DNA of 64,000 nt from Ignavibacteria bacterium (GTDB taxonomy: Bacteria; Bacteroidota; Ignavibacteria; Palsa-1295). Both the position numbers and the translations under genes were made by a program. The notes beneath the pieces were generated by a model. That model made no database searches. It was not told the DNA's origin and worked only from the letters and a program-made list of their open reading frames with translations. Positions 15,231 to 56,815 of the stretch are shown one piece after another. Location: positions 1,145 through 65,144 of the forward strand of contig JABDDM010000002.1 in the NCBI GenBank assembly GCA_013287605.1. Reading direction: 5' to 3'. Within the stretch, counting starts at the first letter, position 1, and every line of letters begins with the position of its first letter.

Positions 15231-15267
15231 TTTTGTCGACCCATTTCAACGATACTAACACTTCACG

Positions 15268-16155
15268 ATGGCTTCTTCGATCAAGCGATTGCTTCGACAT
15301 GGATTACGCAGCTACCTTACTTACACTCCCGTTAAGTTGGGCCGTTTTCCATTGATGATGTTCTTCCACAAGTTCTTGTCGGAGCCAGTCATCGAAGAGG
15401 TGGCGACGAAGGACCGCGGAAGAATGATTCTCGAGATTGATGACTGGACGCAGTACACCATGTACTACAATCTCTATGAGTCAAAATATGACAAGATCAT
15501 GCTCGCGCTAATGAAGGACACAAATGTGGTCCTTGATATTGGCGGGAACATTGGTCAGCATACCCTTTGGTTTGCTCGATATGCTAAGAAGGTCTATACC
15601 TTTGAGCCGCTCCCACGTCTCATCGAACGTTTGAAAAAACACATTGCGATGAACCGCTTGGAAAACAAGGTCACTCTAGTTACAAAAGCTCTAAGTGATG
15701 AACCTAAGACGTTAAGGATTACCGATCCTGAGCCCGGTATGAGCGGAATCGCGAGTACGATTTTGGGTCGTAATCAGAATGAGAAAACGGTTGAAATCGA
15801 CGCAATCCGACTTGATGACTATCTTGATTCTGAAGGAGTCAAGACAGTTGATCTAATTAACATCGATATCGAGGGCGCTGAGTTATTCGCACTCAAGGGG
15901 ATGCCCGAACTCTTGAAACGCTGCTCGCCCCCTCTTATTCTGGAAATGAATGACCTGATGATGGGACTTGCTGGATATACGTTCGATGACGTTCAGAATT
16001 ACCTCAGTCAGTTCGGATACCAGCCTTATCAAATGTTGAAGAATGGCCTTTCGGGTCCTGTACCTAAGATTATTTCCGACTCGGAGAATTTTTGTTTCTT
16101 GACTGCAGAACATTTGCAGATGCAGAAGATCAAAGACATTGTCGTTTCTGGATGA
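15268..16155 (+). CDS. FkbM-family SAM-dependent methyltransferase
   Basis: Motifs VVLDIGGNIGQHT, …YTFEP…, DLINIDIEGAELFAL are typical of the FkbM methyltransferase family. Confidence 0.75.
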   Translation: MASSIKRLLRHGLRSYLTYTPVKLGRFPLMMFFHKFLSEPVIEEVATKDRGRMILEIDDWTQYTMYYNLYESKYDKIMLALMKDTNVVLDIGGNIGQHTLWFARYAKKVYTFEPLPRLIERLKKHIAMNRLENKVTLVTKALSDEPKTLRITDPEPGMSGIASTILGRNQNEKTVEIDAIRLDDYLDSEGVKTVDLINIDIEGAELFALKGMPELLKRCSPPLILEMNDLMMGLAGYTFDDVQNYLSQFGYQPYQMLKNGLSGPVPKIISDSENFCFLTAEHLQMQKIKDIVVSG

Positions 16156-16457
16156 TGACATTCTAAGTCCAGCAAGTTGCGCGAGGGCTCACCACCTCGG
16201 TGCCCGAATGGGAGCCGAGATCTTCAGCGGAAATCTGATACTGTCTGAACCTTGATTCTTGAGATTTTTGGAGTTGGGAGATGAGTTGACAGAAGCGATT
16301 TAATGCCATAATTTATGAAACTTTAAGCTTGTCGGAGGCGTTTACTTTAAGCGGGATTTCGGCCGTCAATCGGCGTGCCCAACCCATGGGATCCCCAACT
16401 AACCCTTCGGACTGTGATACCCTGCTCCCTAAAGATTTTGGTTTCGGATCCGACCCC

Positions 16458-16560
16458 GTGGATTCCCGCATGTGCGGGAATGACAATGACGGCGGTTGAA
16501 TGCGCGAAGCGCAGTAGAACGACGATCCTGTCCTTACCCGCGAAAGCGGGAATCCATCCC
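16458..16560. repeat. MITE-like palindromic repeat element, copy A (about 105 bp), with terminal 26-nt palindromic units
   Basis: GGATTCCCGCATGTGCGGGAATGACA … CCTTACCCGCGAAAGCGGGAATCCATCC. Each unit is itself a palindrome (CCCGC-N4-GCGGG) and the two units are inverted relative to each other. A near-identical element occurs at 45985-46086. Confidence 0.55.
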
Positions 16561-16915
16561 CAAACGTTGAGCCAAAACTCCCATTAGTTTTCTATACGAA
16601 GGAGAATTATGAATAAAGGGACTAACATACTTGACTCAGCAGACTAGCCCAGGTCTGCACCTCCCTACCTACCAACACGTTATGGCCTTTTCCACGCATA
16701 CAGTTGAGAACTCCTCAGCGCTTGTTGAAAGCTTCCGGCAATAAATGCGAATCATGTGCCCCGACTTTTGTAGATAATACGTCGCATCACTCTAAGTATC
16801 TGATTTTAAAAGAGTTAGTGCCTATTGGGGTGTGAGGAGCTTTCGGAGTTGAAAAACCCCGAAATAGTTGAGGGTAACCGTTGACGCGGTTACCCTCAAG
16901 GTCGATCTAAAAAGC

Positions 16916-16984
16916 GGGGCGGGCTATTGGTAGCAAGCTTGATTTGGCATCCGGCTAATGGGGGTTCGAATCCCCTCCGCTCCA
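16916..16984 (+). other. tRNA-like 3' fragment (T-arm plus acceptor 3' strand), possibly an integration-site remnant
   Basis: …GGGGGTTCGAATCCCCT CCGCTCC A… is a canonical T-stem-loop (TTCGAAT) plus 7-nt acceptor strand plus discriminator. It is followed by CTG rather than CCA. A convincing D-arm or anticodon arm could not be folded from the upstream 45 nt. Confidence 0.3.
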
Positions 16985-17075
16985 CTGCTTTAGATCTCCA
17001 AATATACAACGGGATAACTCACATTTCCACCTAGAAGTGCCGAAAGGTGATAAATCCGAGGTTATCCACACTTAA

Positions 17076-17297
17076 TCACTGCGGAATCTCGATAATCCGC
17101 TCGCCTAGAGCGTTTTCTAAAAGCAGGATAGTCTTGAGCGTCAGGTTCGTCTCACCAGCAAGGATAGCGCTGATGTAGGACTTACCCTTACTCGTCGCAT
17201 CCGCGAGGTCTTGTTGATTCCAACCCTTTCGCTCTAGGATCATAGCGATCCGTTCAGCGATCTCCAGTTGGCGCTTTTCGAGAGTGATTTTAGCCAT
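17076..17297 (-). CDS. XRE-family helix-turn-helix transcriptional regulator
   Basis: 73 aa. The HTH_XRE signature (…WNQQDLADATSKGKSYISAILAGETNLTLKTILLLENALG…) is present. Confidence 0.75.
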   Translation of the reverse strand: MAKITLEKRQLEIAERIAMILERKGWNQQDLADATSKGKSYISAILAGETNLTLKTILLLENALGERIIEIPQ

Positions 17298-17406
17298 TCA
17301 CTAGTAAGACAAAGTTTATTCAAAGATAGTTCAATTATATTGGAACCGCTTACTCCGTTTCTTCGTATCTATATACGTAAGAGTTCTATTATAATTGAAC
17401 TACTAA

Positions 17407-18339
17407 ATGCAAACCGTACCAAAGACCTTACTCGAAGTGATCCGATATTTCTCAGACAAGAAGAACTGTGTTGAGTTCGTGAAGAACCTCCGTTGGCCGG
17501 ATGGTAGCGTGGCGTGTCCGAAGTGTGGGACCCTCAAAGTGAAGGAGCTTGCTACACGTCAGATATGGCAGTGTGGTGAGAAGGGCTGTCGCAAGCAGTT
17601 CTCAGTTAAGGTCGGTACGATCTTCGAGGATTCAGCGCTCACACTTGACAAGTGGCTGATTGCAATGTGGATGATCTCAACGTGTCGCAATGGTGTGTCC
17701 AGCTACGAAATTGCACGTTCCCTCGGTATCACTCAGAAGAGCGCATGGTTTCTCTTGCACCGCGTCCGTGAATGTATGCGTCGTGGTACGGTTACAAAGC
17801 TCACAGGGACCGTTGAAGTCGATGAGACCTACATCGGTGGCCTTGAGAAGAATAAGCACTCCTGGAAGAAAGTACACGGTGGCAACATCGGCAACAAAGT
17901 TATTGCGATGGGCTTAGTTGAGCGCGATGGTGACGTTATTGCAAAAGTTGTTGATGATACCACGTATACTTCGCTAAGCAAAGAGATAGAACTGCACGTC
18001 GAGAAGGATGCAAAGCTCTATACCGACGAATGGCGTAGCTACATGAAGTTGGGAGCGACATACGATCACTTCGTAGTCAATCACGGTGCAAAAGAGTACG
18101 TTCGAGGTAATGTCCACACCAACACCATTGAAAGCTTCTGGTCGCTCTTAAAGCGCGGCTTGAAAGGCACGTACATTCACGTTGCTCCGTTTCATCTTGA
18201 TCGTTACATCGACGAACAGGCACTCCGTTTCAACCTTCGTAAGGGTTCGGAGTTCAACCGCCTTGAGGTAGTAACGGCGCAAAGCATCGGACGTAGACTC
18301 ACTTGGAATGAACTGACTGGCAAAGCCGCCACAGAATGA
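17407..18339 (+). CDS. IS1595-family transposase with an N-terminal zinc ribbon and a DDE domain
   Basis: N-terminal CxxC…CxxC zinc ribbon (VACPKCGT…WQCGEKGC), followed by the ISXO2-like DDE transposase core. 310 aa. Confidence 0.75.
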   Translation: MQTVPKTLLEVIRYFSDKKNCVEFVKNLRWPDGSVACPKCGTLKVKELATRQIWQCGEKGCRKQFSVKVGTIFEDSALTLDKWLIAMWMISTCRNGVSSYEIARSLGITQKSAWFLLHRVRECMRRGTVTKLTGTVEVDETYIGGLEKNKHSWKKVHGGNIGNKVIAMGLVERDGDVIAKVVDDTTYTSLSKEIELHVEKDAKLYTDEWRSYMKLGATYDHFVVNHGAKEYVRGNVHTNTIESFWSLLKRGLKGTYIHVAPFHLDRYIDEQALRFNLRKGSEFNRLEVVTAQSIGRRLTWNELTGKAATE

Positions 18340-18548
18340 ATCAGAAACCGAACGCATCACACGGTCCCGAGAACTCAGAACCCGACAACCTAGACCAAAA
18401 GGACAATGGGAAGTCGAGCGAAGAGAACGACTTAAAAAAGTGGGACGAGTTCAAGAACCTCGTCCAGAAGGTAGTAAACCTCCCCGAGTCAGATGTCGAA
18501 AAGGTCAAGCGCAAAGTCCCAAGCAACCGAAAATCAAAAGAAAAATAA
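18336..18548 (+). CDS. hypothetical small, highly charged protein; start overlaps the transposase stop (ATGA)
   Basis: 70 aa, low complexity, rich in K, E, D and N. The only support is translational coupling to the transposase. Confidence 0.3.
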   Translation: MNQKPNASHGPENSEPDNLDQKDNGKSSEENDLKKWDEFKNLVQKVVNLPESDVEKVKRKVPSNRKSKEK

Positions 18549-18608
18549 TCGTTAGACGCGAGGGGATGACAGGGGCAAGATGGTGGCGAGAAAACGTCAA
18601 TATTTAGG

Positions 18609-19007
18609 CTACGGAGTTCTCATTTTTCGCCTTTTCAACTCTTTCCCCATCCTAGTAGCGGTGAACTGCAATCCCCCTTTGTCCAAGTAGGTGTTGTAGT
18701 CTGCTAGAAGTTGCTTGTTCGTCACCTTCGTAAAATCGATACTATCTAACTCCGGCGAGGAGCGAGGCCCTTTGATTCGGGAAAGAATATCCTGAGTCTT
18801 TTCCATGTCCGTTGGATGCTTCCCACCTCCTGAAGATAGCCCCCCATGCGACGAATGCCCATGCAACTTCGAATTCTTTGCTCCCTCCCTCGCTATGTGC
18901 CGTTGATGGATTTGCTCTCTCGTAAGACCTGATTTGCCGTGACCTAGTTGTCTCATAATGATATTAAATGGATTAACGTACTTGCACGAACGTTGACACG
19001 GCATCAA
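18609..19007 (-). CDS. hypothetical protein
   Basis: 132 aa ORF in the accessory island with no recognisable motif. Confidence 0.35.
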   Translation of the reverse strand: MMPCQRSCKYVNPFNIIMRQLGHGKSGLTREQIHQRHIAREGAKNSKLHGHSSHGGLSSGGGKHPTDMEKTQDILSRIKGPRSSPELDSIDFTKVTNKQLLADYNTYLDKGGLQFTATRMGKELKRRKMRTP

Positions 19008-19233
19008 AATTCCACCTGTTCACAAAATCCTTCTCTCAGCCGCGGTTTGGCTGGCTTTCACGATAGGTCCGACACAGGCCAATCAATCTAGGCACAGCGT
19101 AGACCGTCATGAACGATGGCCCGTAAAAACACTTGAAGATGGCTTCGAGCCGAACGGCGTTGTAGAACACACATCGATTGACAAGCTAGCGAATGAAGAT
19201 ACTCTACGATACCTTGGTAATGATTCTCCACGC

Positions 19234-19704
19234 ATGGAGCGAGAGAAACAGATAATTGAATTCACAGCGATCCTTTTGGGCTACAGGATAGAGCACGATG
19301 GCGACCTTCACATTGCACTGAGAGATTCGCAAACCAGACAAAGGATGATTGCCGAAATTCCCGATTCGATTGAGTCTCCGAAACACGGGCGTCTTTTCGC
19401 CTCTTTGCGGATCGATCTCGAAAGGAGGTTCGGAAGAGCTACTTTGAACTTCAACTGGAGCAAGTTCTATAGAAAGAAAAGGGTGTTTGTTTCCATCCAA
19501 GGTGTCCTGTTTGTTGACAGACGGCATGGGAATAAGGTCGAGGCTAAGAACTTCGTTGAGTGCCATCCTGTTTTTATCCATGCGGTTTCCCGGGTAATGG
19601 CCCCGCTCTCAACATATGGCAGTCATGGAAGAGAAGATCAAGGTAGGGGATGTTGTCCAGCTCAAACAGGGAGGTCAAATCATGACCGTAACGCAGATCA
19701 ATAA
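19234..19704 (+). CDS. hypothetical protein
   Basis: 156 aa ORF. The 3' end overlaps the DUF2158 ORF in another frame, so the true end or start is uncertain. Confidence 0.35.
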   Translation: MEREKQIIEFTAILLGYRIEHDGDLHIALRDSQTRQRMIAEIPDSIESPKHGRLFASLRIDLERRFGRATLNFNWSKFYRKKRVFVSIQGVLFVDRRHGNKVEAKNFVECHPVFIHAVSRVMAPLSTYGSHGREDQGRGCCPAQTGRSNHDRNADQ

Positions 19705-19885
19705 AAAGATGGGTGATGACTTTGAATCTGCGTTTTGCTCGTGGCCTCTGAATGGTGTCGCCCATCACGGGGCGTTTGCGCTTGCAGCACTCAAGAGAGC
19801 ATCTAAGGGATCTATTCGAGCCTTTAGGATTCAGGGCTTCTTGGCTGGAATTTTTCCCTTCATGAATAGGGGCAAATCTTCATAA
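19616..19885 (+). CDS. DUF2158 (YodC-like) small protein
   Basis: KVGDVVQLKQGGQIMTVTQI…FCSWPLNG matches the YodC/DUF2158 pattern (VGDVVxLKSGGPxMTV…CxWF). The real start is probably the internal Met (MEEKIKVGD). Confidence 0.55.
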   Translation: MAVMEEKIKVGDVVQLKQGGQIMTVTQINKKMGDDFESAFCSWPLNGVAHHGAFALAALKRASKGSIRAFRIQGFLAGIFPFMNRGKSS

Positions 19886-20112
19886 GTTGATCAGGCCCGA
19901 CTTCAATTCGAACACGGAGTCAACCCCTTACTTCTTAAAGCTTTTTCGATCATTTCGACGGATTTCCTCTCGCAGTCGTCGTAAGTTCTCCTCCTTGGGA
20001 TTTTTGGGGAGAGCCATGGGAGCCTCCTTCGCAGAGTGTTTGGAATTCTCCTTAATAATTTTTTTCTGTTCAGGGGATAAAATGTCTTGCGTCGTTGGGT
20101 ATAGCATCTAAC

Positions 20113-21126
20113 TTACTCTTTGTGCTTTGAAACAGCGTGAAATCTAGTCTTGTAGGCTTCCTCGGACATCCATCTGAAGCCGTCGCTAGGTGTGATCAGC
20201 CCAATATGTATTTCGCCACCGACAGTCGGCAATCTATCGCTGAATTGCTGCGACTTGATCATCAGGTCTACCAAGAACTCAACAAACTCAATGGCCGCTT
20301 GTTCCGAGAAAAATCTCAATTCCGAAGACAGTCTGCTGTAGGCAAACGGAAAATCGAACCGTTCCTCAGATTTTGGCACTAATGTGTTGAAATCTGGGAC
20401 ATCTCCAGTATAGCCGTTCCCCTGCAAGTAGTTTTTTAGTCTTTCCTGGTAGAGGCCTAGGGCAAAGTAAGCTTGATGGATCGCCACACCCCACCCCCTG
20501 TCGTCGATACCATTCACAACTCGTTGAATCACGTCGTGTTGGCCACCAAATACGATACTATATCTGCTGGGATCCTCATTGCACTCGGTAATCTCTGGTT
20601 CGTCCCCATATTTGATCACGATTTTCCAAATTTCTGGATCATGACTCCCTTTGGAATATCCCGAAACGATTACTTCCATTGGTGAATAATATTGTGAGGA
20701 AGCTTTGTACTCCTTGTCAAGGTGCTCGCTTAGTGCCTTAGTCAAACTGTCCATTTTCTTCGCAGCGGTCTTGAACCCAGCTGACTCTTGGAATTCCTCA
20801 ATAATAGTCTTTAGACTCTTCGCGCCCAGGCTCGCTAATCCCGCAAAAAGTAGCCCTACTGGAAGGTGTTCCTTGGGCTTACCAAGTGGAAATAGTTTGG
20901 TAAGTGATGGTATCTGGTTAGACGGTATGGGTTGAGAGAGTTCGAAGAGTTTCTCGCTCGTAAGGGTGACCGGTACACCGTTAGCATCTGTTTTGGGATT
21001 GCCATTGGATTCAAAAAGATGCTGATATATTGAAATCCAAGGCACGTATGGATTACTGATTGTGCCCAAACTATCGCAGCCAAGGACAATGCAGTTACTA
21101 GTCGCCAAACTGATGGTGGTGGTCAT
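20113..21126 (-). CDS. hypothetical protein with an N-terminal Ntn-hydrolase (proteasome beta/HslV-like) signature
   Basis: The N-terminus MTTTISLATSNCIVLGCDSLGT parallels HslV/proteasome-beta N-termini (MTTIVSV…VIAGDGQAT), with a Thr nucleophile directly after the Met. 337 aa. Lower GC than the flanking DNA. Confidence 0.4.
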   Translation of the reverse strand: MTTTISLATSNCIVLGCDSLGTISNPYVPWISIYQHLFESNGNPKTDANGVPVTLTSEKLFELSQPIPSNQIPSLTKLFPLGKPKEHLPVGLLFAGLASLGAKSLKTIIEEFQESAGFKTAAKKMDSLTKALSEHLDKEYKASSQYYSPMEVIVSGYSKGSHDPEIWKIVIKYGDEPEITECNEDPSRYSIVFGGQHDVIQRVVNGIDDRGWGVAIHQAYFALGLYQERLKNYLQGNGYTGDVPDFNTLVPKSEERFDFPFAYSRLSSELRFFSEQAAIEFVEFLVDLMIKSQQFSDRLPTVGGEIHIGLITPSDGFRWMSEEAYKTRFHAVSKHKE

Positions 21127-21427
21127 CTTCTCTATATTTGGAAGTGAGGAGGCAACAAATATACGTACTATTCTAATCGTTTCACGAAGATGCCGGTGAA
21201 TCTGGCCAAGTCCCCTGCTGAGTCAAGTATATCAGTCCCTGAATAAAGTTTTCACACACACTAGCGTTGCTTGAAGGAAATATTGATTCCAGATCAGAAT
21301 CGAGGATGTAACTGTGACTGACCTCTTATTATGAAAAACGTTTACACATCTCGCGGCTGATCCGCCTGGAGGATTCCATGAGATCCTTCGTCGGCCCAGG
21401 ATGACAAATCGAAATCCTAATCCCCAA

Positions 21428-21471
21428 CTGTTCCCCGTTCCCCGTTCCCTGTTCCCTGTTCCCTGTTCCCC
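21428..21471. repeat. tandem array of the heptamer CTGTTCC(C/T), about 6-7 copies
   Basis: CTGTTCCCCGTTCCCCGTTCCCTGTTCCCTGTTCCCTGTTCCCC read directly, about 140 bp upstream of the ssb start. Confidence 0.8.
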
Positions 21472-21609
21472 GACTCGCAGAGTCTCGATTGTTGAAAATT
21501 CGCAGAAACGGTTACTTCTCTTTTCGAATTATATGTGACGTGTTCTCACGCTGGGAAGGGTATAACCTTCGGCGCAGACGATAACCAAATAGAATATTTA
21601 GTCGACGAT

Positions 21610-44456: not shown

Positions 44457-45577
44457 AGTGATCGGATGGAATTTGGCAGGCGTTCGTAGATCAGATATAG
44501 TAAAAGTCGGCCGACCTCATCGAGTGTTTTATCACTAACGTTGTTCGGAAGATCATGCGTCGTATGCCAATACTTGCGGTCCGGATCCTGGGTATGCGCG
44601 CCTACCAAATCACCGTCGATAATATCAACCGCAGGGATTCCGCCCTGAATGAATGGAAGATGATCGTCTTCGATCGTTGGACCCGCAATTTGTTTGAAAG
44701 TTGTGAGTCCCAGATCCTGCGCTGCTCTCCAGATCTCCGCAGTGAATTGCGGTGCTGACCTTTGCGAATTTCCTTCCGGCTTGAATTCCGCCTTTTTGTC
44801 ACCCACCATATCAAGCAGGATGGCGAAGCGTGGATTGTAGTCTGCGGGCTTCGTCTTCACAAAAAATTTCGCGCCGAGAAAATACTTATTGAGTTCGTCG
44901 ATCGAGGGCTTGCCATAATCTTCACCATCATCGAAGAGCAGATCAACGCCGATCGGCGGTGGATTGTCTTTCATTGCCTTTGCGAGTTCGAGCATGACGG
45001 CAGTCCCCGAGCCACCATCATTGGCGGCCGGCACAGGCTTATTTCGATTCGTTGAATCCTTATCCTCATCAGCCCACGGACGAGAATCCCAGTGGGTCAG
45101 GATCAGGATCCGATCTGTCGCCGAGGGATTGAATGACGCGACGACATTCGTCAAGTTCAAAGTCGAGCCGTCGTAGCCGGTTTCGGTAAATGGCTGGAGG
45201 CTAACGGCGCTGGTGTACTTCGCGAGCTCCGTTTGGATATATTTCAGCTCATGGTCATGAGCTGCACTGTTCGGCACTCGTGGACCAAAGCTAACCTGCT
45301 GCACAACCGACTTCATCGCGGCTGCACCATCGAACGGAGGAGCCGTCTTCGCGACGAGCGGCGGCAGCGCCTTGGCTGGCCCATCGGCCGGTGGATTATC
45401 CGTCTTCTTAGAGCACGCGACTGCAACAAAAGCGAGAAGGGCAAGCGGAGGGAAAAGTAGCTTCCGCGGTAGTCGATTCAAAAATTGCATCAAAAAATAG
45501 TACGCTGAAATTCGTCGTGAAAGGTGTGTAACAAAACGAGAGTAGGCAAGTTCTTTTATATGTCTCCGTTTGAGCAC
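44453..45577 (-). CDS. M28-family peptidase (aminopeptidase or glutaminyl-cyclase-like), secreted
   Basis: Signal peptide. Zinc-ligand context …ILTHWDSRPWADED… and …DDGEDYG…. Confidence 0.75.
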   Translation of the reverse strand: MLKRRHIKELAYSRFVTHLSRRISAYYFLMQFLNRLPRKLLFPPLALLAFVAVACSKKTDNPPADGPAKALPPLVAKTAPPFDGAAAMKSVVQQVSFGPRVPNSAAHDHELKYIQTELAKYTSAVSLQPFTETGYDGSTLNLTNVVASFNPSATDRILILTHWDSRPWADEDKDSTNRNKPVPAANDGGSGTAVMLELAKAMKDNPPPIGVDLLFDDGEDYGKPSIDELNKYFLGAKFFVKTKPADYNPRFAILLDMVGDKKAEFKPEGNSQRSAPQFTAEIWRAAQDLGLTTFKQIAGPTIEDDHLPFIQGGIPAVDIIDGDLVGAHTQDPDRKYWHTTHDLPNNVSDKTLDEVGRLLLYLIYERLPNSIRSL

Positions 45578-45696
45578 GGGACAATTAGCTTGGAAGCAAT
45601 GCTCTCTTGAGTGACCTTCCCGGTGAATAGAAGCACATCTGAAGATCTCGAGTAGCCTGGATGAACGATAACTTCATTCGGGCTCTCTCGTTTTAT

Positions 45697-45815
45697 GGGG
45701 TCAGGGAACAGGGCACGGTAAACAGGGAACAGATAGGGATTGAAGGCGGGAGAGTGCAAAAACTTCGATCATCCCTCCCGCTGTTCCCTGTTCCCATTCC
45801 CTGTTCCCTGAGCCC
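45697..45815. repeat. imperfect palindrome about 115 bp long whose arms are arrays of GGGAACAG / CTGTTCCC
   Basis: CAGGGAACAGGGCACGGTAAACAGGGAACAG … (central GCGGGAG…CTCCCGC) … CTGTTCCCTGTTCCCATTCCCTGTTCCCTG. It uses the same heptamer as the array at 21428-21471. Confidence 0.7.
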
Positions 45816-45984
45816 GTGTGTAAATGCGTTATTCATAATCCAAGATTCAACCTTCGATTTTGTGCTGAAAACGGCAATTCGCGATTGCCAAGCTTGGTGT
45901 GTGTGAAAACTTTATTCATAATTCCCCTTCGTATAGAAAACTAGTGGGGTGTTTTTGAGATCGACCCACATCCTAGACTCTGGG

Positions 45985-46086
45985 GATGGATTCCCGCATT
46001 CGCGGGAATGACAAGATGGAGACTCTGTGGCGCTTCGCGCGTTACTCCCTGTTGATGTCATTCCCGCACAGGCGGGAATCCATGGG
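45985..46086. repeat. MITE-like palindromic repeat element, copy B
   Basis: GGATTCCCGCATTCGCGGGAATGACA … TGTCATTCCCGCACAGGCGGGAATCCA. The interior shares GCGCTTCGCGC with copy A in inverted orientation. Confidence 0.55.
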
Positions 46087-46460
46087 GAAGGAAGGATGCA
46101 ACTCGCGTGGGTCGGGCGTCTCGCCCGACCTAGGGTGGCGCGGGGTACTCTCTCTTGTTGCGACCTACCGGGAGTCGGGCGAGAGGCCCGACCGCTGAAG
46201 AGCGGAGAATTTGCCTACGCTACATAAAACGCATAATTATCCACCATCGTTCCCTTGGGAGAACGAATACCTCACGAGAATGAGCAGCTTTATGAACCAG
46301 ATCAATCTACAACCCTCGGAACTCACAATAGGGACACGATGTGTTCTTTTGCCAGCTTTCGACCCTGAGCGCAGGTTCGTCCCGAAACCCAACTCTCTCA
46401 CCGTCCATTGCACAAGATCACAAGTATTTGAGATGCCCAAAAACGTTATAATGAACTGGC

Positions 46461-48359
46461 ATGCCTGAATTTAGTCCGACTGAAGAGCAACGAAAAATTC
46501 TTGAGCACGATATGAGGCGTCATGCCAGGGTTAAAGCGGGCCCCGGCACAGGCAAAAGTGCTACGCTTGTTGCACTTCTCGACAAGTTGATCACTGAGGG
46601 CGCGACTGGAAGAATGAAGCTGTTGACATTCACTCGCGCTGCAACGGGCGAACTGCTTAAGAAGGTGTCGAGCCATCCCGCCGCCGCAGCTGAGCATCCG
46701 AGCACGATCCACTCCTTTGCAATATCAATCTTGCTTGCGAATCCTGGCGCTGGCAACTTCCCTGAGCCATTACGCATCGCGGATGACTGGGAATTTAACA
46801 ACGTGGTGCGACTAACACTCGCAAAGCGGCTTGGAATAAAGCAGAAACAACTCGACCGCCTAGTTAAAGAACTTGCCGCGAATTGGGAAGCGCTAAGGCC
46901 CCAAGATGATGCTGGCATCAGTGACGAGCTACGAAGCAGGTTTTTAGGAGCTTGGAATGAGCATCGCCTAATTTTTGGCTATGTGTTATTGCAAGAGTTG
47001 CCCTACGCCTTGAGGCACGCATTAGTAAATTATCCCGAGCTGCGAGGTATCGACTTCGATTTACTGATAGTCGATGAGTATCAAGACCTGAACTCATGTG
47101 ACCTCGATGTTATTCATTTGCTCTCACAACGAGGATGCTCGATTATTGGAGCAGGAGATGACGACCAATCGATATACCACTTTCGAAAAGCAGCGCCGGA
47201 AGGAATTCGAAGGTTTCTGACCGATTATCCTGGCGGAGAAGATTATGCGCTATCGATAACACAGCGTTGCGGAAGCCAAATCATTGAATGGGCCAACTAC
47301 GTTATCAGTGGTGATCCCGACCGGCCCCAACGAAATCCTCTCACTCCGGTTGCAGGATCACCGAGGGGGGAGTGCAAGCTTTTATCTTTTCGGAATCAGA
47401 GTGAAGAGATCGAGGGTGTAGCCGAACTCATCGAAAACCTTACTGAACAAGACGTAAAAGCATCTGACATCTTGGTCCTCCTCAGAAGTGATTATTACGG
47501 TATTTTTAGTAGACCTCTCAAAGGGGAGCTGAAGATAAGAAATATTCCGTGTTCTGAGGAAGACGCTGTTGAAAGGATGTTGCAAGAGCCCGACAATCGG
47601 CGCATTATGGAAGTTTTGAGGCTGGTTGAGAACGAAGAAGATTCCATCGCGTGGGCTTCACTTCTCAAGCTCAGCAAAAGAATTGGCATGTCATTTTTTG
47701 AGTATGTTTATGGTATCGCCAAGTCGAGGCGTGCGACTTTTGGAAAGACGCTCTTAGAGACCTACGGCTTTGGCTTCCCTGGAGCGCCATCCGCGTCGGC
47801 TTCGAAGGCAAAAGAATTTATCCGCCAAACGCTGAATTGGCTTAATACAAGAAGGGCTGACTTGCAGGAGCAAGAGCACTGGGGGGCGTCAATTTTGGAA
47901 CTCCCCGATGGGCTTGTGATCCCTCAGCCAAGCAAGGAATTTCAGGATTTGCTTCTCTCGCTCGATGAAATAGCAGACCCAGGCCAGAACTTGGGAAGGT
48001 ATTTGAGTCAGGTCATTCCTTTGGGAAAGGACATGATGCAGGCTACATGCGAAGGCGTGCGAATCATGAGCATGGGGGGCGCTAAGGGACTTACCGTCAG
48101 AGCCACGATAATGATGGCCTTAGAGGAAGGAATCGTACCTCGCCCAGAAGCCGATCTTGGGGAAGAGAGACGACTACTGTACGTTGCAATGACAAGGTCG
48201 AAGGAGTTCCTCTACGGAACATGGGCAAGAACGCGAACCGGCCCTACCGCGAGATCAGGGGAGGGCCAAGTTGGCGGCATACGTAACTACACACACTTTC
48301 TACAAGGCGGGCCTGTTGATTCAGAAGACGGGAAACGGTATCTCGCCACTCTGATTTAG
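46461..48359 (+). CDS. UvrD/Rep-family superfamily 1 DNA helicase (compact, 632 aa)
   Basis: Walker A (AGPGTGKSATL), motif II (LLIVDEYQDLN), motif III-like (IIGAGDDDQSIY), motif VI-like (LLYVAMTRSKEFLY). Lower GC than its surroundings. Confidence 0.8.
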   Translation: MPEFSPTEEQRKILEHDMRRHARVKAGPGTGKSATLVALLDKLITEGATGRMKLLTFTRAATGELLKKVSSHPAAAAEHPSTIHSFAISILLANPGAGNFPEPLRIADDWEFNNVVRLTLAKRLGIKQKQLDRLVKELAANWEALRPQDDAGISDELRSRFLGAWNEHRLIFGYVLLQELPYALRHALVNYPELRGIDFDLLIVDEYQDLNSCDLDVIHLLSQRGCSIIGAGDDDQSIYHFRKAAPEGIRRFLTDYPGGEDYALSITQRCGSQIIEWANYVISGDPDRPQRNPLTPVAGSPRGECKLLSFRNQSEEIEGVAELIENLTEQDVKASDILVLLRSDYYGIFSRPLKGELKIRNIPCSEEDAVERMLQEPDNRRIMEVLRLVENEEDSIAWASLLKLSKRIGMSFFEYVYGIAKSRRATFGKTLLETYGFGFPGAPSASASKAKEFIRQTLNWLNTRRADLQEQEHWGASILELPDGLVIPQPSKEFQDLLLSLDEIADPGQNLGRYLSQVIPLGKDMMQATCEGVRIMSMGGAKGLTVRATIMMALEEGIVPRPEADLGEERRLLYVAMTRSKEFLYGTWARTRTGPTARSGEGQVGGIRNYTHFLQGGPVDSEDGKRYLATLI

Positions 48360-48382
48360 TATTCATCCCGCACATTTCATCA

Positions 48383-50029
48383 ATGTCAACTCACAAGCAA
48401 CGAATGCGCAGGTTTGGCACCTTGGCTCCCCCTCCTAAAGGTACCAAAGAACGCGATGCGCTAATGAAAACAGTTGACGCTGCGCTCGCGATGGATCCTG
48501 AATTTAAGAAGATTCTCAAACGAAAACGTAAAGCGGCTTTCGGAAAATGGGAAATGCAGCTTGCAAACGGAGCTGGCTTGCAATTGGATGGGCATCTGAG
48601 ACACTTCTTAACGGAATTCAACCACAGAATGTCCGAATTCGGATTTGACTCAATGCCGGCTTCGTTTAATGTTCTAGAAGCCTTCTTTAAGTATGATGGC
48701 AACATCTTCTATTTCGAGTTGCTACCTGAAGTCGATCATTTGTTTTCATTTCTCGACTATTGCGACTATCTCACCTCGCCCGATAACAACATTGAAGTTG
48801 CCTCGAGCCTGGAATATTTTGCAGAAGGAATGATCTACTCGTTCAATATCCTGAACGATCCTAAAGACATTCAATTCTCGACCTCTTCGAAAAAGTCTTT
48901 CGCCGTGGGCGGTGTATCCATGATTCGGCGTGGAAGCGAGGTATCAATTCTCCTTCTGGGAGGGGAAAAGATAGACACGACAAACGACCCAGCAGAACTT
49001 CTTGATCCAGATTTGGGGGATGTGAAAGTCACACCGGGACACGAGGAGATCAAGCCCTCACCCGACCGTATACGAGAGACAGTGAAGCTTCTTAATCAGG
49101 ATGAGTTTTGGCAGTGTCTCATCCTAGTCAGGCTCGATATTAATACGATGACCATTGATTCACGGTATGTATTGCATGACCAAGGGGATGCGTTTCAGAT
49201 TACCACTGATGACATCTCTTCTTTCTCTCACGAGATCGGTAAAGATGGTCTGTTTAAGACCCCTTCTGTAAAGGAACTGTACGAGAAATTCTCAGAAAGA
49301 ACGATTGGCTATGACGCGCTTTTTCAGGTAGCAGCAAGCTCGATACATCTTTTAAGGTATTTTGTGGACTATAATGAGTCACTCACCTACGAGCAGCATG
49401 TGACGTCGTACGGAGACTCCAAACCAAAGCCTGAGATATACCGTCAAGACCGCGTTGACCCAATGCTCAAGATCAGAGAGAGAACTGTAGCTGTAATGGA
49501 GCGACGCAACGTGTTTGCCTCTGATAGTACGATCTTTGCAACTAATGATTTCAAGATTGAAAGGTCTGGCTATTGGAAAAAACTATCTTATAATGCGATT
49601 GGTAAGGATAAGCATGGCAAAAGCATTCACGGACGTACCTGGGTAGAAAGCACAATGACTTGGAATGAGTCGCCGCCTAGTCCACTTCGCATTTACACGA
49701 ATTTGAATCAACCAATTTCCAGTGGCCAATCAGGTATCATCTATGTTATGCGCAACGCGTCGCATGGGAAAAACATCTTCAAAGTGGGTATGACCACCCG
49801 CGATCCAGAAACGAGGGCCTTAGAATTGTCTTCCACGACAGGTTCACCCGATAGATTCCTTGTTGCTCAAGAATGGGATGTACAGGATTGCGTGATCGCG
49901 GAGAAGCGTATTCACAAAGAGCTTGATGCTTATAGAATTAATACCAACCGTGAGTTTTTCAAGATCGAATACAATGCGCTTATAAAAATCATTGAGAAGT
50001 GCGTTTTTGAAATCAATCGCCTAGATTAA
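48383..50029 (+). CDS. protein with an unassigned roughly 430 aa N-terminal region and a C-terminal T5orf172/MUG113 (GIY-YIG-like) domain
   Basis: The C-terminus GIIYVMRNASHGKNIFKVGMTTRDPETRALELSSTTGSPDRFLVAQEWDVQDCVIAEKRIHKELDAYRINTNREFFKIEY matches the T5orf172 pattern (YVM…KIGxT…RxxEL…P…EFF). It lies 24 nt downstream of the helicase on the same strand. Confidence 0.65.
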   Translation: MSTHKQRMRRFGTLAPPPKGTKERDALMKTVDAALAMDPEFKKILKRKRKAAFGKWEMQLANGAGLQLDGHLRHFLTEFNHRMSEFGFDSMPASFNVLEAFFKYDGNIFYFELLPEVDHLFSFLDYCDYLTSPDNNIEVASSLEYFAEGMIYSFNILNDPKDIQFSTSSKKSFAVGGVSMIRRGSEVSILLLGGEKIDTTNDPAELLDPDLGDVKVTPGHEEIKPSPDRIRETVKLLNQDEFWQCLILVRLDINTMTIDSRYVLHDQGDAFQITTDDISSFSHEIGKDGLFKTPSVKELYEKFSERTIGYDALFQVAASSIHLLRYFVDYNESLTYEQHVTSYGDSKPKPEIYRQDRVDPMLKIRERTVAVMERRNVFASDSTIFATNDFKIERSGYWKKLSYNAIGKDKHGKSIHGRTWVESTMTWNESPPSPLRIYTNLNQPISSGQSGIIYVMRNASHGKNIFKVGMTTRDPETRALELSSTTGSPDRFLVAQEWDVQDCVIAEKRIHKELDAYRINTNREFFKIEYNALIKIIEKCVFEINRLD

Positions 50030-50174
50030 AGCACCTCTTTTCCGTGGTTGTGGAACTCCTGAGCCCGTTGAATGGACTCGAGCTTAACGAGATCCAATTA
50101 ATTTTGCAACGTCAGTAGTGCGCCTGCTTAACCGTTGCCCTTACATAGGTGTCCCCTCTTGCGCTGAGGCCCCC

Positions 50175-51134
50175 CTACTCCTCTACATCCTCCGAATAAA
50201 CATCATCTGGTGTCACCTCGGTGGGTGGGACGAGGATGCGGAGGAAGCGTTTGAAGGCGCGCTGGCCTACGAGGTCGTGTGATTCGCCGAAGACCATGAT
50301 GAGGTTGCGGATCATGCGGAGAATGATCGTGCGGTCTTCTGCAGGGTCGAGGAAGGCGTCGTTATATTTTAACTTGGATGCATCCAGAAAGCGTTTGATG
50401 TCACGCTTTCGTAGCACGACACCCCCATTAAATGCGTCTACGAACAGCGGCTCTTCGATGGCGCCATCATAGCGAATGAGGAAATGTCCGGGTGCGCTTG
50501 AACCTGAGAACGGAAGGCCGACGCGCATTTTTGCGATCAGGAGATATGCAACTGCGAGCGAAATCGGGATGCCCATCTTGCGATCGATCACGCGATTCAA
50601 ATAGCTGTTGTCGGGTTCGAGGAACGCGCCCTGGTTGCCGCGAAACTTTTGTTTTTCGAAAAAGAAATCGTTGGTGATCGCAAGTATCTCAAGCGGTGAG
50701 TGAACTCCGGCGATTCGGTCGCGGAGCATTCCGGCCAGCGCCGAAAGTTCGATTCGATAATGCTCGATGTTGAGCCGTGGGTAACCGTAGCGTGCTACGA
50801 GGAACGCCCCATCTTCGAGCGCTCGTGGGTCACCCCATTCGAGCCGCTTATTGAGCACACAAAATTCTTTCGCAAGCCGCTCTTCGTTCAACTCCCGGAC
50901 AAGCATCGAAGCCCGATCGCCCGCGAGTTCGTCATCGGTGAGATCGACAAAATCGAGAAGTTCACCCAGGATCGCATCGCCCTTGCTTCGGAGCCGTTCG
51001 ATCACTGTTTCTGAAATGCGTGTGTCGGGGTCGTCGAGCAGGCTGAATAACGGCTGTAGCTCCCTGTCGAGTGTCGGAGCGTCGACCTCGAGTTTGGTGA
51101 GTGTATGAACCGGATCCTGTCGCGACAAAGCCAT
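50175..51134 (-). CDS. transglutaminase-like/SirB1 (UPF0162) family protein
   Basis: …RKMGIPISLAVAYLLIAKMRVGLPFSGSSAPGHFLIRY… is the hallmark of the SirB1 N-terminal transglutaminase-like family. Start chosen at the internal ATG (MALSRQDP). Confidence 0.6.
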   Translation of the reverse strand: MALSRQDPVHTLTKLEVDAPTLDRELQPLFSLLDDPDTRISETVIERLRSKGDAILGELLDFVDLTDDELAGDRASMLVRELNEERLAKEFCVLNKRLEWGDPRALEDGAFLVARYGYPRLNIEHYRIELSALAGMLRDRIAGVHSPLEILAITNDFFFEKQKFRGNQGAFLEPDNSYLNRVIDRKMGIPISLAVAYLLIAKMRVGLPFSGSSAPGHFLIRYDGAIEEPLFVDAFNGGVVLRKRDIKRFLDASKLKYNDAFLDPAEDRTIILRMIRNLIMVFGESHDLVGQRAFKRFLRILVPPTEVTPDDVYSEDVEE

Positions 51135-52226: not shown

Positions 52227-52958
52227 TTAACTCATGACGGACCGACCGCCGTCCACAATGATTGTTTGTCCGGTGATGTATGGTGCATCGAATGCGAGGA
52301 ACTGGACGACACGAGCAATATCATGTACGGTGCCATATCGCTTCATCGGGATACGCTCGCGAGCGATCCCCATCCGTTCTTCACTTTCGTCTTCAAGCTG
52401 GATCGCGCCCGGCGCGACGGCATTGACCGTAATACACTGCTCGGCGAGTTCGCGTGCTAAAGTTTTTGTCAGTGTGATCAACGCCGATTTCGACACATTG
52501 TAATCGATCCGTTCTTTCCAGATCTGCACTCCGCCAAGCGATGCAAGATTTACGATCGCGCTCCCGGAGTTCATTTGCTTTGCAGCCGCTCGTACCATTG
52601 CGAATGGGGCAACGAGATTTAGCTCCAAGGCTTCACGAAGGTCATTTGGCTCCAGGTTGTCCAACTTCCTTCTTGCAGGAAGGACTCCTGAATTATTGAT
52701 CAATACGTCGATGCCGCCGGCCAGTTTAACAAATCGCTCAACGATTGCATCTGCCTCCGACCGAACGTCGCCTTGCAATAAATGCGCTGCTTCCGCACCG
52801 GCCTGCAAGCATCGCTCGGCAAACGCCTTTGCCTCGTCAGCAGGTGTACGGTAATAATTGAGCCCGAGCACGACGCCCTTCTCGGCCAATTCCAACGCAA
52901 TACCGCCGCCCAATCGGTGGACGCCTCCAGTGATCAGCACGCGGGAGGATTTTATCAT
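52227..52958 (-). CDS. SDR-family oxidoreductase
   Basis: VLITGGVHRLGGGIALEL, NNSG, S…Y…K triad spacing. Confidence 0.8.
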   Translation of the reverse strand: MIKSSRVLITGGVHRLGGGIALELAEKGVVLGLNYYRTPADEAKAFAERCLQAGAEAAHLLQGDVRSEADAIVERFVKLAGGIDVLINNSGVLPARRKLDNLEPNDLREALELNLVAPFAMVRAAAKQMNSGSAIVNLASLGGVQIWKERIDYNVSKSALITLTKTLARELAEQCITVNAVAPGAIQLEDESEERMGIARERIPMKRYGTVHDIARVVQFLAFDAPYITGQTIIVDGGRSVMS

Positions 52959-55180: not shown

Positions 55181-56815
55181 TCAGCGTGTGGTACTATCTC
55201 TTACATTGCGATAAATCTCGAAATCGTGGAGGGTTGTATCGTATTGGTAGTTTGTGGTGAGGAAAGTGTCGAATTTGGGAATTTCATGCATCAAAACATT
55301 TGGCGGCTGGGAAAGAAAATTCAGGAAGCTCTTGTGCTCCCTTGCGAGGACGATGTATTTCGGGAGCACCGCTGTGAGGGAATCTACAAACTCCTTTCGC
55401 CAATTGAGCTGGTAATCAGTGAATCCGCCTTCGCCCCGATGCATCACAAGCGGGAAGATCATTGTAAATCTTGTAGCTGGTTCACGTTCCGATTTCCAAA
55501 TGAACTCGGGGTTTTCGCTGCATAACTCGACTCGGTCGGTCGTTACTGTGCGTGAAAGGATATAGTTTGTCAATGCTAGATTTTGCACATTGTCGCGATG
55601 ATAAAATGTCGAGAACTGGTTGTGCACGTATTCAACCGTTGGGCCAGGTTGAGTCATCCCATCAACGAACCACTGCAATACTCGCCAGGGGAACGTTGCA
55701 AAAAGGAAAAGCACAATGACAGCCCAAAGCACGATCGTGCGAGTGCTTTTTTGTTTGATGAGTGGTACCGCTATATCCAATAAAAATGCGAGAAGAATAC
55801 TTGTAAGTATCAGCAGCATCTCATAGTGATGCCGGAAGAACTTGCCCATCACCAGAATGCTCACTCGTGCTGCAACGTAATAAGCGATAAACAGGTAGCG
55901 ATCAAATCGATCGAAGCCGGTTACGTTGTGGAATCCTCGATTCGTTGAATGCTTCTTAAGTGCGAAATAGATAATGAGGAAGACCAGCAGAACTGCGTCA
56001 ACGAAGAGCTCGGCTCCTTGGTAAAATGCCTCAGTCAACGGAGACCGGTATCTGCTGCTGCCGTAGATATCGATGTTGAATCGAATCGTAGCGAGATAGA
56101 GTGCATTGAGCGCGCCGGGCTTCGATGCGAATGGCAAGATGACGGCCGCAATTAATATCAATGAGCCGAGGAGAAAAGCGGCCACTCGTTTGGGCGCACC
56201 GGGCAGAGGCAATTTCCACAGTGCGACAGCGATGATGACAGCGAACAATCCATATGTCGGCCTGACCCAGCATGCGCATGCTGCGAAGACTCCAATTACA
56301 ACGCAAGTAAAGATATCTCCAGTTTGCGGCTGATTGCTTATTGCTCTGTCTTTGATTCGATAGAGAAGCATCGTGACCACAAGTGTAAAGAACGCGGCAA
56401 ATCCCTCGCGTTGACCCGTACTCCCGTCGCCTCCGCTGATGTAGAGAAGACACAATACGATTGAAACGATAAATGCAGTACGCGGCGAAGTCCAACGGAT
56501 AACCAATCGATAAAGCATGAGCACTATCCCGACATGGACGATGATGTCGAGTATCCGAAAACCAGTGTCGGTATTTCCAAAAAGAAGAATCGCCAGCGAA
56601 TGGATAAAGACAATTCCCGGGAAATTCATATCCCATGAGCCTACATACGGAAGCCGGTGGAATTGGACCAACTGCACGGCCATCGTTTGATAGACACTTT
56701 GGTCCATTGTGAATGGGTAAAGCGCGGTGACAAGAAGCAGCAGAAACGCTGTGAGTCCGGTGAGAACGAAGAACTTGCGATTCGGATCTCTAATGATGCT
56801 TTCGTAAAGGCTCAA
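55181..56815 (-). CDS. polytopic membrane protein, possibly a GT-C-fold (ArnT/PMT-like) glycosyltransferase
   Basis: 544 aa with about 12 TM helices. The first periplasmic loop is Asp-rich, as in GT39/GT83 enzymes. Weak assignment. Confidence 0.45.
   Translation of the reverse strand: MSLYESIIRDPNRKFFVLTGLTAFLLLLVTALYPFTMDQSVYQTMAVQLVQFHRLPYVGSWDMNFPGIVFIHSLAILLFGNTDTGFRILDIIVHVGIVLMLYRLVIRWTSPRTAFIVSIVLCLLYISGGDGSTGQREGFAAFFTLVVTMLLYRIKDRAISNQPQTGDIFTCVVIGVFAACACWVRPTYGLFAVIIAVALWKLPLPGAPKRVAAFLLGSLILIAAVILPFASKPGALNALYLATIRFNIDIYGSSRYRSPLTEAFYQGAELFVDAVLLVFLIIYFALKKHSTNRGFHNVTGFDRFDRYLFIAYYVAARVSILVMGKFFRHHYEMLLILTSILLAFLLDIAVPLIKQKSTRTIVLWAVIVLFLFATFPWRVLQWFVDGMTQPGPTVEYVHNQFSTFYHRDNVQNLALTNYILSRTVTTDRVELCSENPEFIWKSEREPATRFTMIFPLVMHRGEGGFTDYQLNWRKEFVDSLTAVLPKYIVLAREHKSFLNFLSQPPNVLMHEIPKFDTFLTTNYQYDTTLHDFEIYRNVRDSTTR

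Follow-up and report, generated by a model that had tools for sequence, protein, structure and literature searches.

Background

Among the closest described counterparts of the locus analysed here are the NTS hairpins of Neisseria, which are targets of Ssn nucleases, and the G-rich heptamer arrays of Xanthomonas and Nostoc. The locus is a 970-bp non-coding junction (45491-46460) in a 64,000-nucleotide (nt) stretch of an Ignavibacteria bacterium genome (GCA_013287605.1, contig JABDDM010000002.1, positions 1,145 to 65,144, forward strand); the whole stretch is referred to below as the window. The NTS of Neisseria is a 28-nt sequence, CGTCATTCCCGCGMAVGCGGGAATCYRG (Chenal et al., Nat Commun 2025, PMC11893778). 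It is bound and cut by the GIY-YIG nuclease SsnA only as single-stranded DNA (ssDNA), just upstream of the hairpin, and neither RNA nor double-stranded DNA is bound. The critical determinants for SsnA are GTC before the palindrome and C after it, and SsnA reduces five-fold the transformation by DNA that carries NTS. The gene is typically arranged as NTS-ssnA-NTS, and a degenerate pattern, SRM, was defined for other phyla (PMC11893778).

In Neisseria, arrays of dRS3 hairpins separated by 50-150 bp RS repeat families make up what are called neisserial intergenic mosaic elements (NIMEs); these were stated to be Neisseria-specific (Bentley et al. 2007, PMC1797815). The GGGAATC heptamers of Xanthomonas occur as 70-75 convergent pairs per genome, with conserved positions and variable length, and form G-quadruplexes (Rehm et al. 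2015, PMC4692102). Nostoc heptamers, GGGGA(T/C)T, are of the short tandemly repeated repetitive (STRR) type (PMC4692102).

For the present junction, we consider it probable (roughly 70%) that it is a mosaic of dispersed hairpin-forming repeats resident in the Candidatus Kapabacteria lineage, bordering a lineage-specific 4.5-kb insertion, with Ssn acting on the hairpins as proposed below.

Layout of the junction

An original prediction had placed three separate structures and a GC-rich palindrome in a non-coding region at 45578-46460. All four were recovered in place, far beyond chance, and the region is indeed non-coding and built from repeats. Its bounds were corrected to 45491-46460: the M28 peptidase gene starts with the ATG at 45490 on the minus strand, encodes a lipoprotein signal peptide and agrees with the public gene call, and the UvrD-type helicase gene begins at 46461. 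The open reading frames (ORFs) that cross the repeats had been predicted not to be genes; no junction ORF had a Pfam match, and the ORF at 45986-46198 reads MDSRIRGNDK...SFPHRRES, which is the translated hairpins. Most of the repeats belong to one composite element, present here as copy A and elsewhere in the window as copy B. Copy A consists of the following features:

45695-45815, no strand: module 1, two convergent G3N4 heptamer arrays, a 121-nt imperfect hairpin
45816-45841, + strand: module 2 (box1), GTGTGTAAATGCGTTATTCATAATCC; the homologous box in copy B lies at ~21325-21350 (-)
45897-45943, + strand: module 3 (box2), GGTGTGTGTGAAAACTTTATTCATAATTCCCCTTCGTATAGAAAACTA; the best conserved module
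45986-46013, - strand (sense): NTS/SRM hairpin 1, TGTCATTCCCGCGAATGCGGGAATCCAT; an exact SRM match with an 8-bp stem
46014-46055, no strand: doublet spacer of 42 nt with a small central hairpin, GCGCTTCGCGC; the centre is kept in copy B
46056-46083, + strand (sense): NTS/SRM hairpin 2, TGTCATTCCCGCACAGGCGGGAATCCAT; an SRM match with GTC before the palindrome and C after it

The NTS/SRM hairpin doublet

The part of the junction previously described as a MITE-like element (structure iii) consists, judged by sequence, of two NTS/SRM hairpins (TGTCATTCCCGC-N4-GCGGGAATCCAT) in inverted orientation. Their motif is the dRS3/NTS of Neisseria, a known ssDNA target of Ssn nuclease, and the element is not a transposon with terminal inverted repeats. 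The two arms of the doublet (28 nt, 89% complementary, 42 nt apart) are each a perfect 8-bp hairpin. Since the doublet is inverted, it would offer one cleavable copy on each strand. Hairpin 1 folds at -9.0 kcal/mol, better than all of 200 shuffles, and departs from the Neisseria NTS consensus at 3 of 28 positions, two of these being the terminal positions. The central GCGCTTCGCGC hairpin alone folds weakly (z = -1.3).

Pattern-count expectations were obtained from dinucleotide shuffles of the window. At up to two mismatches, ATTCCCGC-N4-GCGGGAAT has four copies at two sites in the 64 kb, against 0.02 expected. The SRM pattern, HGTCWYN(0-2)YYVSBRHN(0-5)WNVSBRGN(0-2)RNCYNB plus a hairpin, matched five times in the window, against 0.28 expected under a Markov model; two matches had no stem and three had stems of at least 8 bp (16458-16485 (-), 45986-46013 (-), and 46056-46083 (+)). 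These three intact hairpins differ from the consensus at 3, 3, and 4 of 28 positions (positions 1, 13/16, and 28) and retain GTC before the palindrome and C after it. A decayed fourth hairpin at 16530-16557 has 6 mismatches. No ssn remnant was found in the junction by low-stringency tblastn. The core of the hairpin is the Neisseria dRS3 repeat, ATTCCC-N8-GGGAAT.

The distribution of the hairpin was determined by an exact scan for GGATTCCCGC-N4-GCGGGAATGACA, which has 22 fixed bases and ~0.07 matches expected in 596 Gb of random bases. Exact hairpins were present in at least 120 stretches of species-representative genomes over a very wide range of phyla, as well as in at least 120 IMG/VR viral contigs. 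From these, 240 loci were picked by the hairpin alone, and ORFs within 1.5 kb of it were clustered. The only recurrent gene that was neither phage nor housekeeping encoded a GIY-YIG protein of ~100 amino acids (aa) lying directly against the hairpin. By tblastn, an Ssn-like gene was found in 13 of the 240 loci, mostly abutting the hairpin; no Y1 transposase was found in any of them. Six predicted viral loci from IMG/VR (L139, L175, L176, L186, L212, and L237) carry the exact NTS hairpin with an adjacent Ssn-like GIY-YIG gene.

A classical miniature inverted-repeat transposable element (MITE), that is, an internally deleted DDE-type insertion sequence (IS) with terminal inverted repeats, would also be ~100 bp long with 28-nt inverted ends and be repeated elsewhere in the window, as 45986-46083 is. 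That origin is nevertheless extremely improbable. No target-site duplication was found at 45985/46084 (flanks CTGGGG and GGGGAA), each end is a complete palindrome, and the identical core recurs in the at least 120 species, of many phyla, and at least 120 viral contigs mentioned above. We know of no IS family whose ends are self-palindromes so widely spread. The opposite arrangement of two hairpins is commoner elsewhere (43 vs 13), and the only true transposon nearby, of the IS1595 family, has quite different ends.

Ssn-like and RAYT-like genes in related genomes

Judged by the names of its M28 peptidase homologues, the organism belongs to the Candidatus Kapabacteria / Kapaibacterium lineage. 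The following related contigs were compared with the window:

L319, GCA_038240295.1: M28 with 80% aa identity to the window
L320, Logan SRR24807096, assembled independently: M28 protein the same as in L319
L321, JGI 3300037156: M28 with 74% aa identity to the window
L249, a JGI metagenome contig, more distant: M28 with 58% aa identity
L325, JGI 3300020908: neighbouring MlaD protein with 76% aa identity

Two of the relatives contain complete cassettes. In L321 (1866-2338), an intact NTS, a 105-aa GIY-YIG gene, and another NTS follow each other, with hairpins almost identical to those of the window, and in L249 (9281-9656) an NTS-ssn-NTS cassette lies directly upstream of the M28 gene of that contig. 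Both Ssn-like proteins match Pfam GIY-YIG. In L319, a further site carries an NTS doublet.

The main rival to the Ssn-based reading is that the hairpin pairs are doublets of repetitive extragenic palindromic (REP) sequences, or REPINs, copied by a REP-associated tyrosine transposase (RAYT) of the Y1 family and unconnected with Ssn. The Neisseria sequence ATTCCCGCGCAGGCGGGAATC, with 241 copies, was treated by Bertels and Rainey as a REPIN of a Group 2 RAYT. Both doublets of the junction also come under the formal REPIN definition, inverted REPs less than 130 bp apart (the NTS doublet with 42 nt and the GC-rich doublet with 44 nt), and L321 encodes a Y1 transposase. The hairpin on either side of the L321 Y1 gene is, however, another one, GTAGCGCCCAACTTCAGTTGGGCGAC, and NTS is found around the GIY-YIG gene; RAYT-like ORFs were found in 0 of the 240 hairpin-selected loci, against 13 with an Ssn-like gene, and no RAYT was found in the window. 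The RAYT screen was made by tblastn with an E. coli RayT sequence, together with the HUH...Y motif, and was not exhaustive. We regard this rival as unlikely.

The Y1 transposase of L321 is RAYT-like (4703-5287) and has the palindrome GTAGCGCCCAACTTCAGTTGGGCGAC on both sides. Together with the cassette of the same contig, it indicates that the lineage holds a REP/RAYT system beside NTS/Ssn, each with its own hairpin.

The composite element

The structures formerly counted as three (i, ii, and iii) are modules of one composite of ~400 bp, which has two copies in the window. The order is fixed: heptamer array(s), box1 (GTGTAAA..TTCATAAT), box2 (GTGTGTGTGAAAACTTTATTCATAATTCCCCTTCGTATAGAAAACTA), and NTS doublet. 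The direct repeats predicted as structure (ii) are present at 45816-45839 and 45899-45922, 83 nt apart, but the true repeat, GTGTGT(A/G)AA..TTATTCATAAT, is longer than had been noted. At up to one mismatch, TTATTCATAATYC occurs four times in the window, against 0.17 expected.

When the junction was compared by BLAST with the rest of the window, 45910-46087 matched 16618-16454 on the opposite strand (74% over 180 nt), and the heptamers matched a six-unit array at 21428-21472. In box2, from the TTTATTCATAAT core through TGGG, all but two positions are invariant between the copies, and 45897-45918 (22 nt) has an identical counterpart on the minus strand at 21240-21261. Copy B is split in two:

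21249-21475, - strand: first part of copy B, upstream of ssb, with the GGGGAACA heptamer array (21428-21472), box1, and the 5' part of box2
16458-16617, - strand: second part of copy B, with the 3' part of box2 (16575-16617) and the NTS doublet (16458-16485 intact, 16530-16557 decayed)
16618-21239, no strand: IS1595-family transposon of 4.6 kb splitting copy B within box2, recognised by its transposase domain, ends, and target duplication

The transposon has 25-nt terminal inverted repeats, GGGACT[AG]A[CT]ATACTTGACTCAGCAG, and a target duplication of 8-9 bp, TGAATAAA(G). Its transposase is marked by the DDE_Tnp_IS1595 domain at 17407-18339, and its cargo comprises an HTH_3 gene and several ORFs with no family match, including one for a 337-aa protein (20113-21126). 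A tRNA-like piece of ~70 nt inside the transposon (16916-16987, +) resembles the acceptor and T-arm of tmRNA; it scored 22 bits with the Rfam tmRNA model, below the gathering score of 47, and was not called by ARAGORN.

After the transposon had been removed in silico, copy B aligned end to end with 45685-46095 (64% identity overall). The alignment is near-perfect in box2, the hairpins, and the small central GCGCTTCGCGC hairpin. Copy B sits between two core genes, for a methyltransferase and ssb. The same spacer in L325 is uninterrupted, with no IS1595 element, and contains a single NTS hairpin along with box2, a GTGTGTAAAT box, and an array of a different heptamer, ACTGACC. Copy B was therefore a resident element at this site into which the transposon jumped later. 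The composite is thus resident here, is maintained by vertical inheritance and has twice received insertions; it is not an island-borne marker.

A degenerate 29-nt box2 pattern matched L321 at 12611-12639 and no other of 323 loci; a related box2 is found in L325, and box2 had no match in IMG/VR. When box2 was compared manually with Bacteroidota -33/-7 motifs, dif, and loxP-like arms, no convincing likeness emerged. The partial composite of L321 has convergent GGGTATA/GGGAATA arrays (12409-12580, matching the architecture of module 1) and box2, and is situated upstream of three genes with TIR and TPR domains. These genes (13166-18438) are tandem TIR_2-TPR genes with weak ThsB and SAVED-TIR matches, downstream of the composite repeat, and look like a defence-type cluster.

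Strong folding (z = -7.2 for the heptamer hairpin and -7.6 for 45980-46200) and a fixed module order might point to a structured non-coding RNA. The original prediction had named a structured regulatory region, and the composite could be the gene for, or the leader of, an RNA transcribed away from its neighbour and regulating the helicase pair or M28. Its orientation is constant at three loci, reading away from the adjacent gene (M28, ssb, and the epimerase gene of L321), and box2 is conserved between relatives with only ~75% protein identity. We judge an RNA improbable, for several reasons. No Rfam 15 family reached its gathering score in the junction, where the long hairpin gave microRNA-like chance matches (33 bits vs 96); over the whole window only a tRNA-Val was found, and permissive thresholds on the junction and both other repeat regions gave chance-level matches. 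A scan of the region for sigma-70-like promoters returned no sites, the heptamer unit differs among loci and relatives with no compensatory change, the hairpins are strand-symmetric DNA palindromes, and SsnA does not bind RNA. The copies of the composite are too few for a covariation test.

A window-specific segment at the junction

Homology with the relatives ends inside the junction. The empty-site comparison was based on three assemblies of two close relatives (L319, L320, and L321), in all of which the gene order is a transglutaminase-like gene, a small conserved ORF, and M28. Neither the helicase gene nor its neighbour, encoding a T5orf172 protein, is found at the site in any of them. The small ORF encodes 109 or 152 aa (55% mutual identity) and has no Pfam match. 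Nucleotide homology halts at 45694 and 50185, which defines the segment and the adjoining conserved region:

45695-50184, no strand: window-specific segment of 4.49 kb, with copy A, the GC-rich doublet, the helicase gene (46461-48359), and the T5orf172 gene (48383-50029)
45491-45694, - strand: conserved upstream region of M28, not a repeat; it marks the end of homology with the relatives

The segment replaces a stretch of ~0.5 kb with the small ORF that is conserved in the relatives, and its first base is the first base of the heptamer palindrome. L319 and L320 share 74% nucleotide homology from the M28 gene to 45694, and L321 shares 45593-45665 at 80%. The helicase matches UvrD and GajB models (Pfam, PADLOC), and the T5orf172 protein matches PDC-S57 and PD-Lambda-1 nuclease domains.

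An empty site had been proposed as a check of the idea that the junction is an insertion hotspot, and it was found: the two closest relatives have no helicase/T5orf172 pair, and homology ends at 45694/45695. The hotspot idea is supported to this extent, but the repeats are not confined to the defence-like pair, as the second copy lies between core genes. A scan of JGI metagenomes with M28 was rejected as an empty-site test (relatives at up to 63% identity, with no synteny on the island side), although it did reveal L249.

It is very unlikely that the repeats arrived with the island, as the end of a mobile element carrying helicase/T5orf172 and comprising the composite and the GC-rich doublet. 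Such an origin would agree with the absence of the entire 45695-50184 from the relatives and with an 11-mer, CCTGAGCCCGT, near both segment ends. Box2 and the NTS doublet are, however, host repeats of the lineage, which also occur between core genes and at the orthologous site of L325. The GC content of the repeats (~47-53%) is host-like, against 43-48% over the helicase and T5orf172 genes. The closest T5orf172 homologues (up to 44% identity, in scattered taxa) have no helicase and stand alone in two contexts, and no integrase or transposase was found in 45695-50184.

The copies of the 11-mer CCTGAGCCCGT are at 45807-45817 and 50058-50068 (chance expectation ~0.12). They may be a trace of the recombination that imported the segment, or due to chance.

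Other spacers of the block differ as well. An SDR gene (52227-52958) and a PMT_2 gene (55181-56815) are present in the window and missing from the otherwise syntenic block of L319, and at these positions L321 has the Y1 transposase and the NTS-ssn-NTS cassette instead. Several spacers of the block are therefore variable.

Heptamer arrays

The arms of module 1 are composed of CAGGGAACAG / CTGTTCCCTG units, with ~4 copies each of GGGAACA and TGTTCCC in arrays that flank ~48-69 nt. Tandem Repeats Finder (TRF) gave a period of 7 with ~4.4 copies per arm, and period-7 arrays at 45702-45732 and 45781-45810 (convergent) and at 21430-21472. The arms between 45695 and 45815 pair as I2 (25 nt, 84% complementary), I4 (17 nt, 88%), and I8 (12 nt, 100%). 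As ssDNA, 131 nt of this region fold at -37.7 kcal/mol (z = -7.2), and 0 of 200 shuffles folded as well. The heptamer pattern was counted 10 times in the window, against 3.0 expected.

The arrays are of the G3N4 class, being intergenic convergent pairs of 7-nt units with a G3 run. Canonical G-quadruplex (G4) motifs, scored as the sequence motif G3+N1-7 x4, lie on the minus strand at 45793-45815 and 21447-21471; on the plus-strand arm (45697-45750), a G4 requires an 11-nt loop. Three canonical G4 motifs were found in the 64-kb window, all inside repeat regions. The unit varies by locus and relative (GGGAACA, GGGTATA, GGTCAGT), with no sign of compensatory change. The arrays are probably simple repeats that arose by slippage and could fold into a long hairpin or G-quadruplexes.

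Heptamer and octamer arrays were also considered as a by-product of NTS. This was rejected, as their frequency within 150 nt of hairpins is only ~2 times that expected. Convergent heptamer pairs are equally frequent in control loci (7 in 0.6 Mb) and in NTS-selected loci (16 in 1.9 Mb), and their origin is therefore not linked to Ssn.

In the soil-metagenome control loci, which were picked irrespective of repeats (L243-L318; e.g., L299 9722-9944 and L281 7316-7459), the period of the convergent array pairs is exactly 7 in 7 of 7 cases. Convergent period-7 regularity thus seems wider than the described cases of Xanthomonas and Nostoc. In unrelated genomes (L012 4199-4370, L081 4376-4541, L127, and L171), NTS doublets stand between convergent tandem arrays of 7-10 nt units, e.g., CACAGAGG ... 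CTCTGTGC, which makes long composite palindromes. This may be a coincidence of two kinds of intergenic repeats; the overall enrichment is weak.

The GC-rich doublet and the flanks of the junction

Two further features complete the helicase side of the junction:

46110-46193, no strand: REP/REPIN-like GC-rich doublet whose arms, GGTCGGGCGTCTCGCCCGAC and GTCGGGCGAGAGGCCCGACC, are separated by 44 nt and form a hairpin each
46194-46460, + strand: unique leader sequence of the helicase gene, 267 nt

The GC-rich arms (46110-46129 and 46174-46193) are 20 nt long and 95% complementary. The doublet occurs once in the window and, among the other loci fetched, only in the Logan contig of the same genome; it does not fit the SRM pattern. 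It is a REP-like element separate from the composite. In the leader, a 62-codon ORF (ATG 46281 to TGA 46468, +) is absent from the public annotation and has no Pfam match. Its stop and the helicase start overlap (ATGCCTGA), suggestive of translational coupling.

On the M28 side, a non-coding block at ~45560-45665, upstream of the gene, is strongly conserved in L319 and L321, with GAAGCACATCTGAAGATCT invariant; it may serve as a promoter or in regulation, or give rise to a short divergent transcript. It is followed by a terminator-like hairpin (45654-45694, + strand).

The short-read assembly breaks at 45917-46103, within the junction. As proof of high copy number, the break was downgraded, as the same contig passes the other repeat sites and palindromes by themselves can cause such breaks.

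Proposed mechanism and its weighing

In the favoured reading, Ssn would be encoded elsewhere in the genome, as in the relatives. The nuclease would bind and cut the hairpins when the region becomes single-stranded during replication, repair, or DNA uptake. Its action would maintain and spread the hairpins as non-autonomous REPIN-like units and leave the spacer prone to recombination and tolerant of insertions. Foreign genes could then land beside or inside the element, as the helicase/T5orf172 pair at copy A and the IS1595 transposon in copy B may have done. Two independent insertions, the 4.5-kb block and the transposon, are found at or in the composite.

Several points weigh against this reading. 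A search of the 64-kb window returned no ssn-like gene. Mobilisation of the hairpins by Ssn is given only as a hypothesis in PMC11893778. Boxes 1 and 2 have no assigned function, and the window contained no more than two composite copies and four hairpins. Neither a target duplication nor clear terminal repeats were found at the limits of the 4.5-kb segment, which has only the shared 11-mer. The relatives are 74-80% identical in protein, which leaves room for loss there instead of gain here, and the assembly break could be caused by the palindromes themselves and not by copy number.

A further step would be to regard the ordered composite as an intergenic module not described before, persisting vertically in the Kapabacteria lineage and acting as a landing pad, via Ssn-dependent single-strand breaks or cruciforms. 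We hold this to be doubtful; the observations that point towards it are the helicase/T5orf172 block, the IS1595 transposon in box2 of copy B, and the three TIR-TPR genes of L321. If true, the landing pad would be a preferred place of integration or exchange for transposons and defence-type genes.

On the favoured reading, the junction adds the Kapabacteria lineage (FCB group) to the range of the recently described Ssn/NTS system and offers a concrete, datable case of such hairpins at the exact breakpoint of a gene gain. The association of NTS with GIY-YIG, beside a co-resident RAYT with a palindrome of its own, bears on the REPIN/RAYT and Ssn accounts of Neisseria dRS3. Many predicted viral contigs carry the identical 26-nt hairpin, and several of them have the nuclease gene as well. 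For annotation, the hairpins account for a class of spurious ORFs (MDSRIRGND..., SFPHRRES...) and for a recurrent assembly break.

Comparison with known systems

The hairpins resemble the published NTS (PMC11893778) in the 8-bp stem (ATTCCCGC/GCGGGAAT), the 4-nt loop, and the oriented flanks, GTC before and C after, as well as in their inverted intergenic pairs, wide phylum distribution, and NTS-ssn-NTS architecture in relatives. They differ in their host, which belongs to the Candidatus Kapabacteria lineage (FCB group), whereas the experimental cases of PMC11893778 are from Neisseria and Wolbachia, and in being fused to conserved boxes and heptamer arrays undescribed there. The transformation-limiting role known from N. 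meningitidis may not apply here.

Like the NIMEs, the junction mixes dRS3-type hairpins with further families of short repeats in a long intergenic region beside variable or exchanged genes. NIMEs have been proposed as a recombination substrate, a likeness to the junction mosaic. Unlike in the NIMEs, there are one or two hairpin pairs per site and no long arrays, and the heptamers, box1, and box2 are unrelated to the RS families of Neisseria.

With REPs, REPINs, and bacterial interspersed mosaic elements (BIMEs) (Bertels and Rainey; Nunvar et al.; Ton-Hoang et al.), the repeats have in common that they are short extragenic palindromes, paired in inverse orientation to give long hairpins. As with REPs and BIMEs, which are known IS insertion targets, they persist vertically at fixed intergenic sites in a mosaic with other motifs. 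Unlike in REP/RAYT systems, the associated gene in the Kapabacteria lineage encodes a GIY-YIG nuclease and not a Y1 transposase. The GC-rich doublet, seen once, may be a member of the REP/REPIN class.

The heptamers agree with those of Xanthomonas and Nostoc in the 7-nt unit with a G3 run, the intergenic position, and the few to about ten units per array. With those of Xanthomonas they further share frequent convergent array pairs able to form a stem-loop, G-quadruplex potential, and conserved genomic positions with varying unit number and sequence. They differ from both in unit sequence and phylum, and in being the first module of a larger conserved composite; in the Kapabacteria lineage, they are known here from sequence alone. 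Rather than a new kind of system, the junction is a new example of known things: Ssn-related hairpins in a NIME/BIME-like mosaic with G-rich heptamers.

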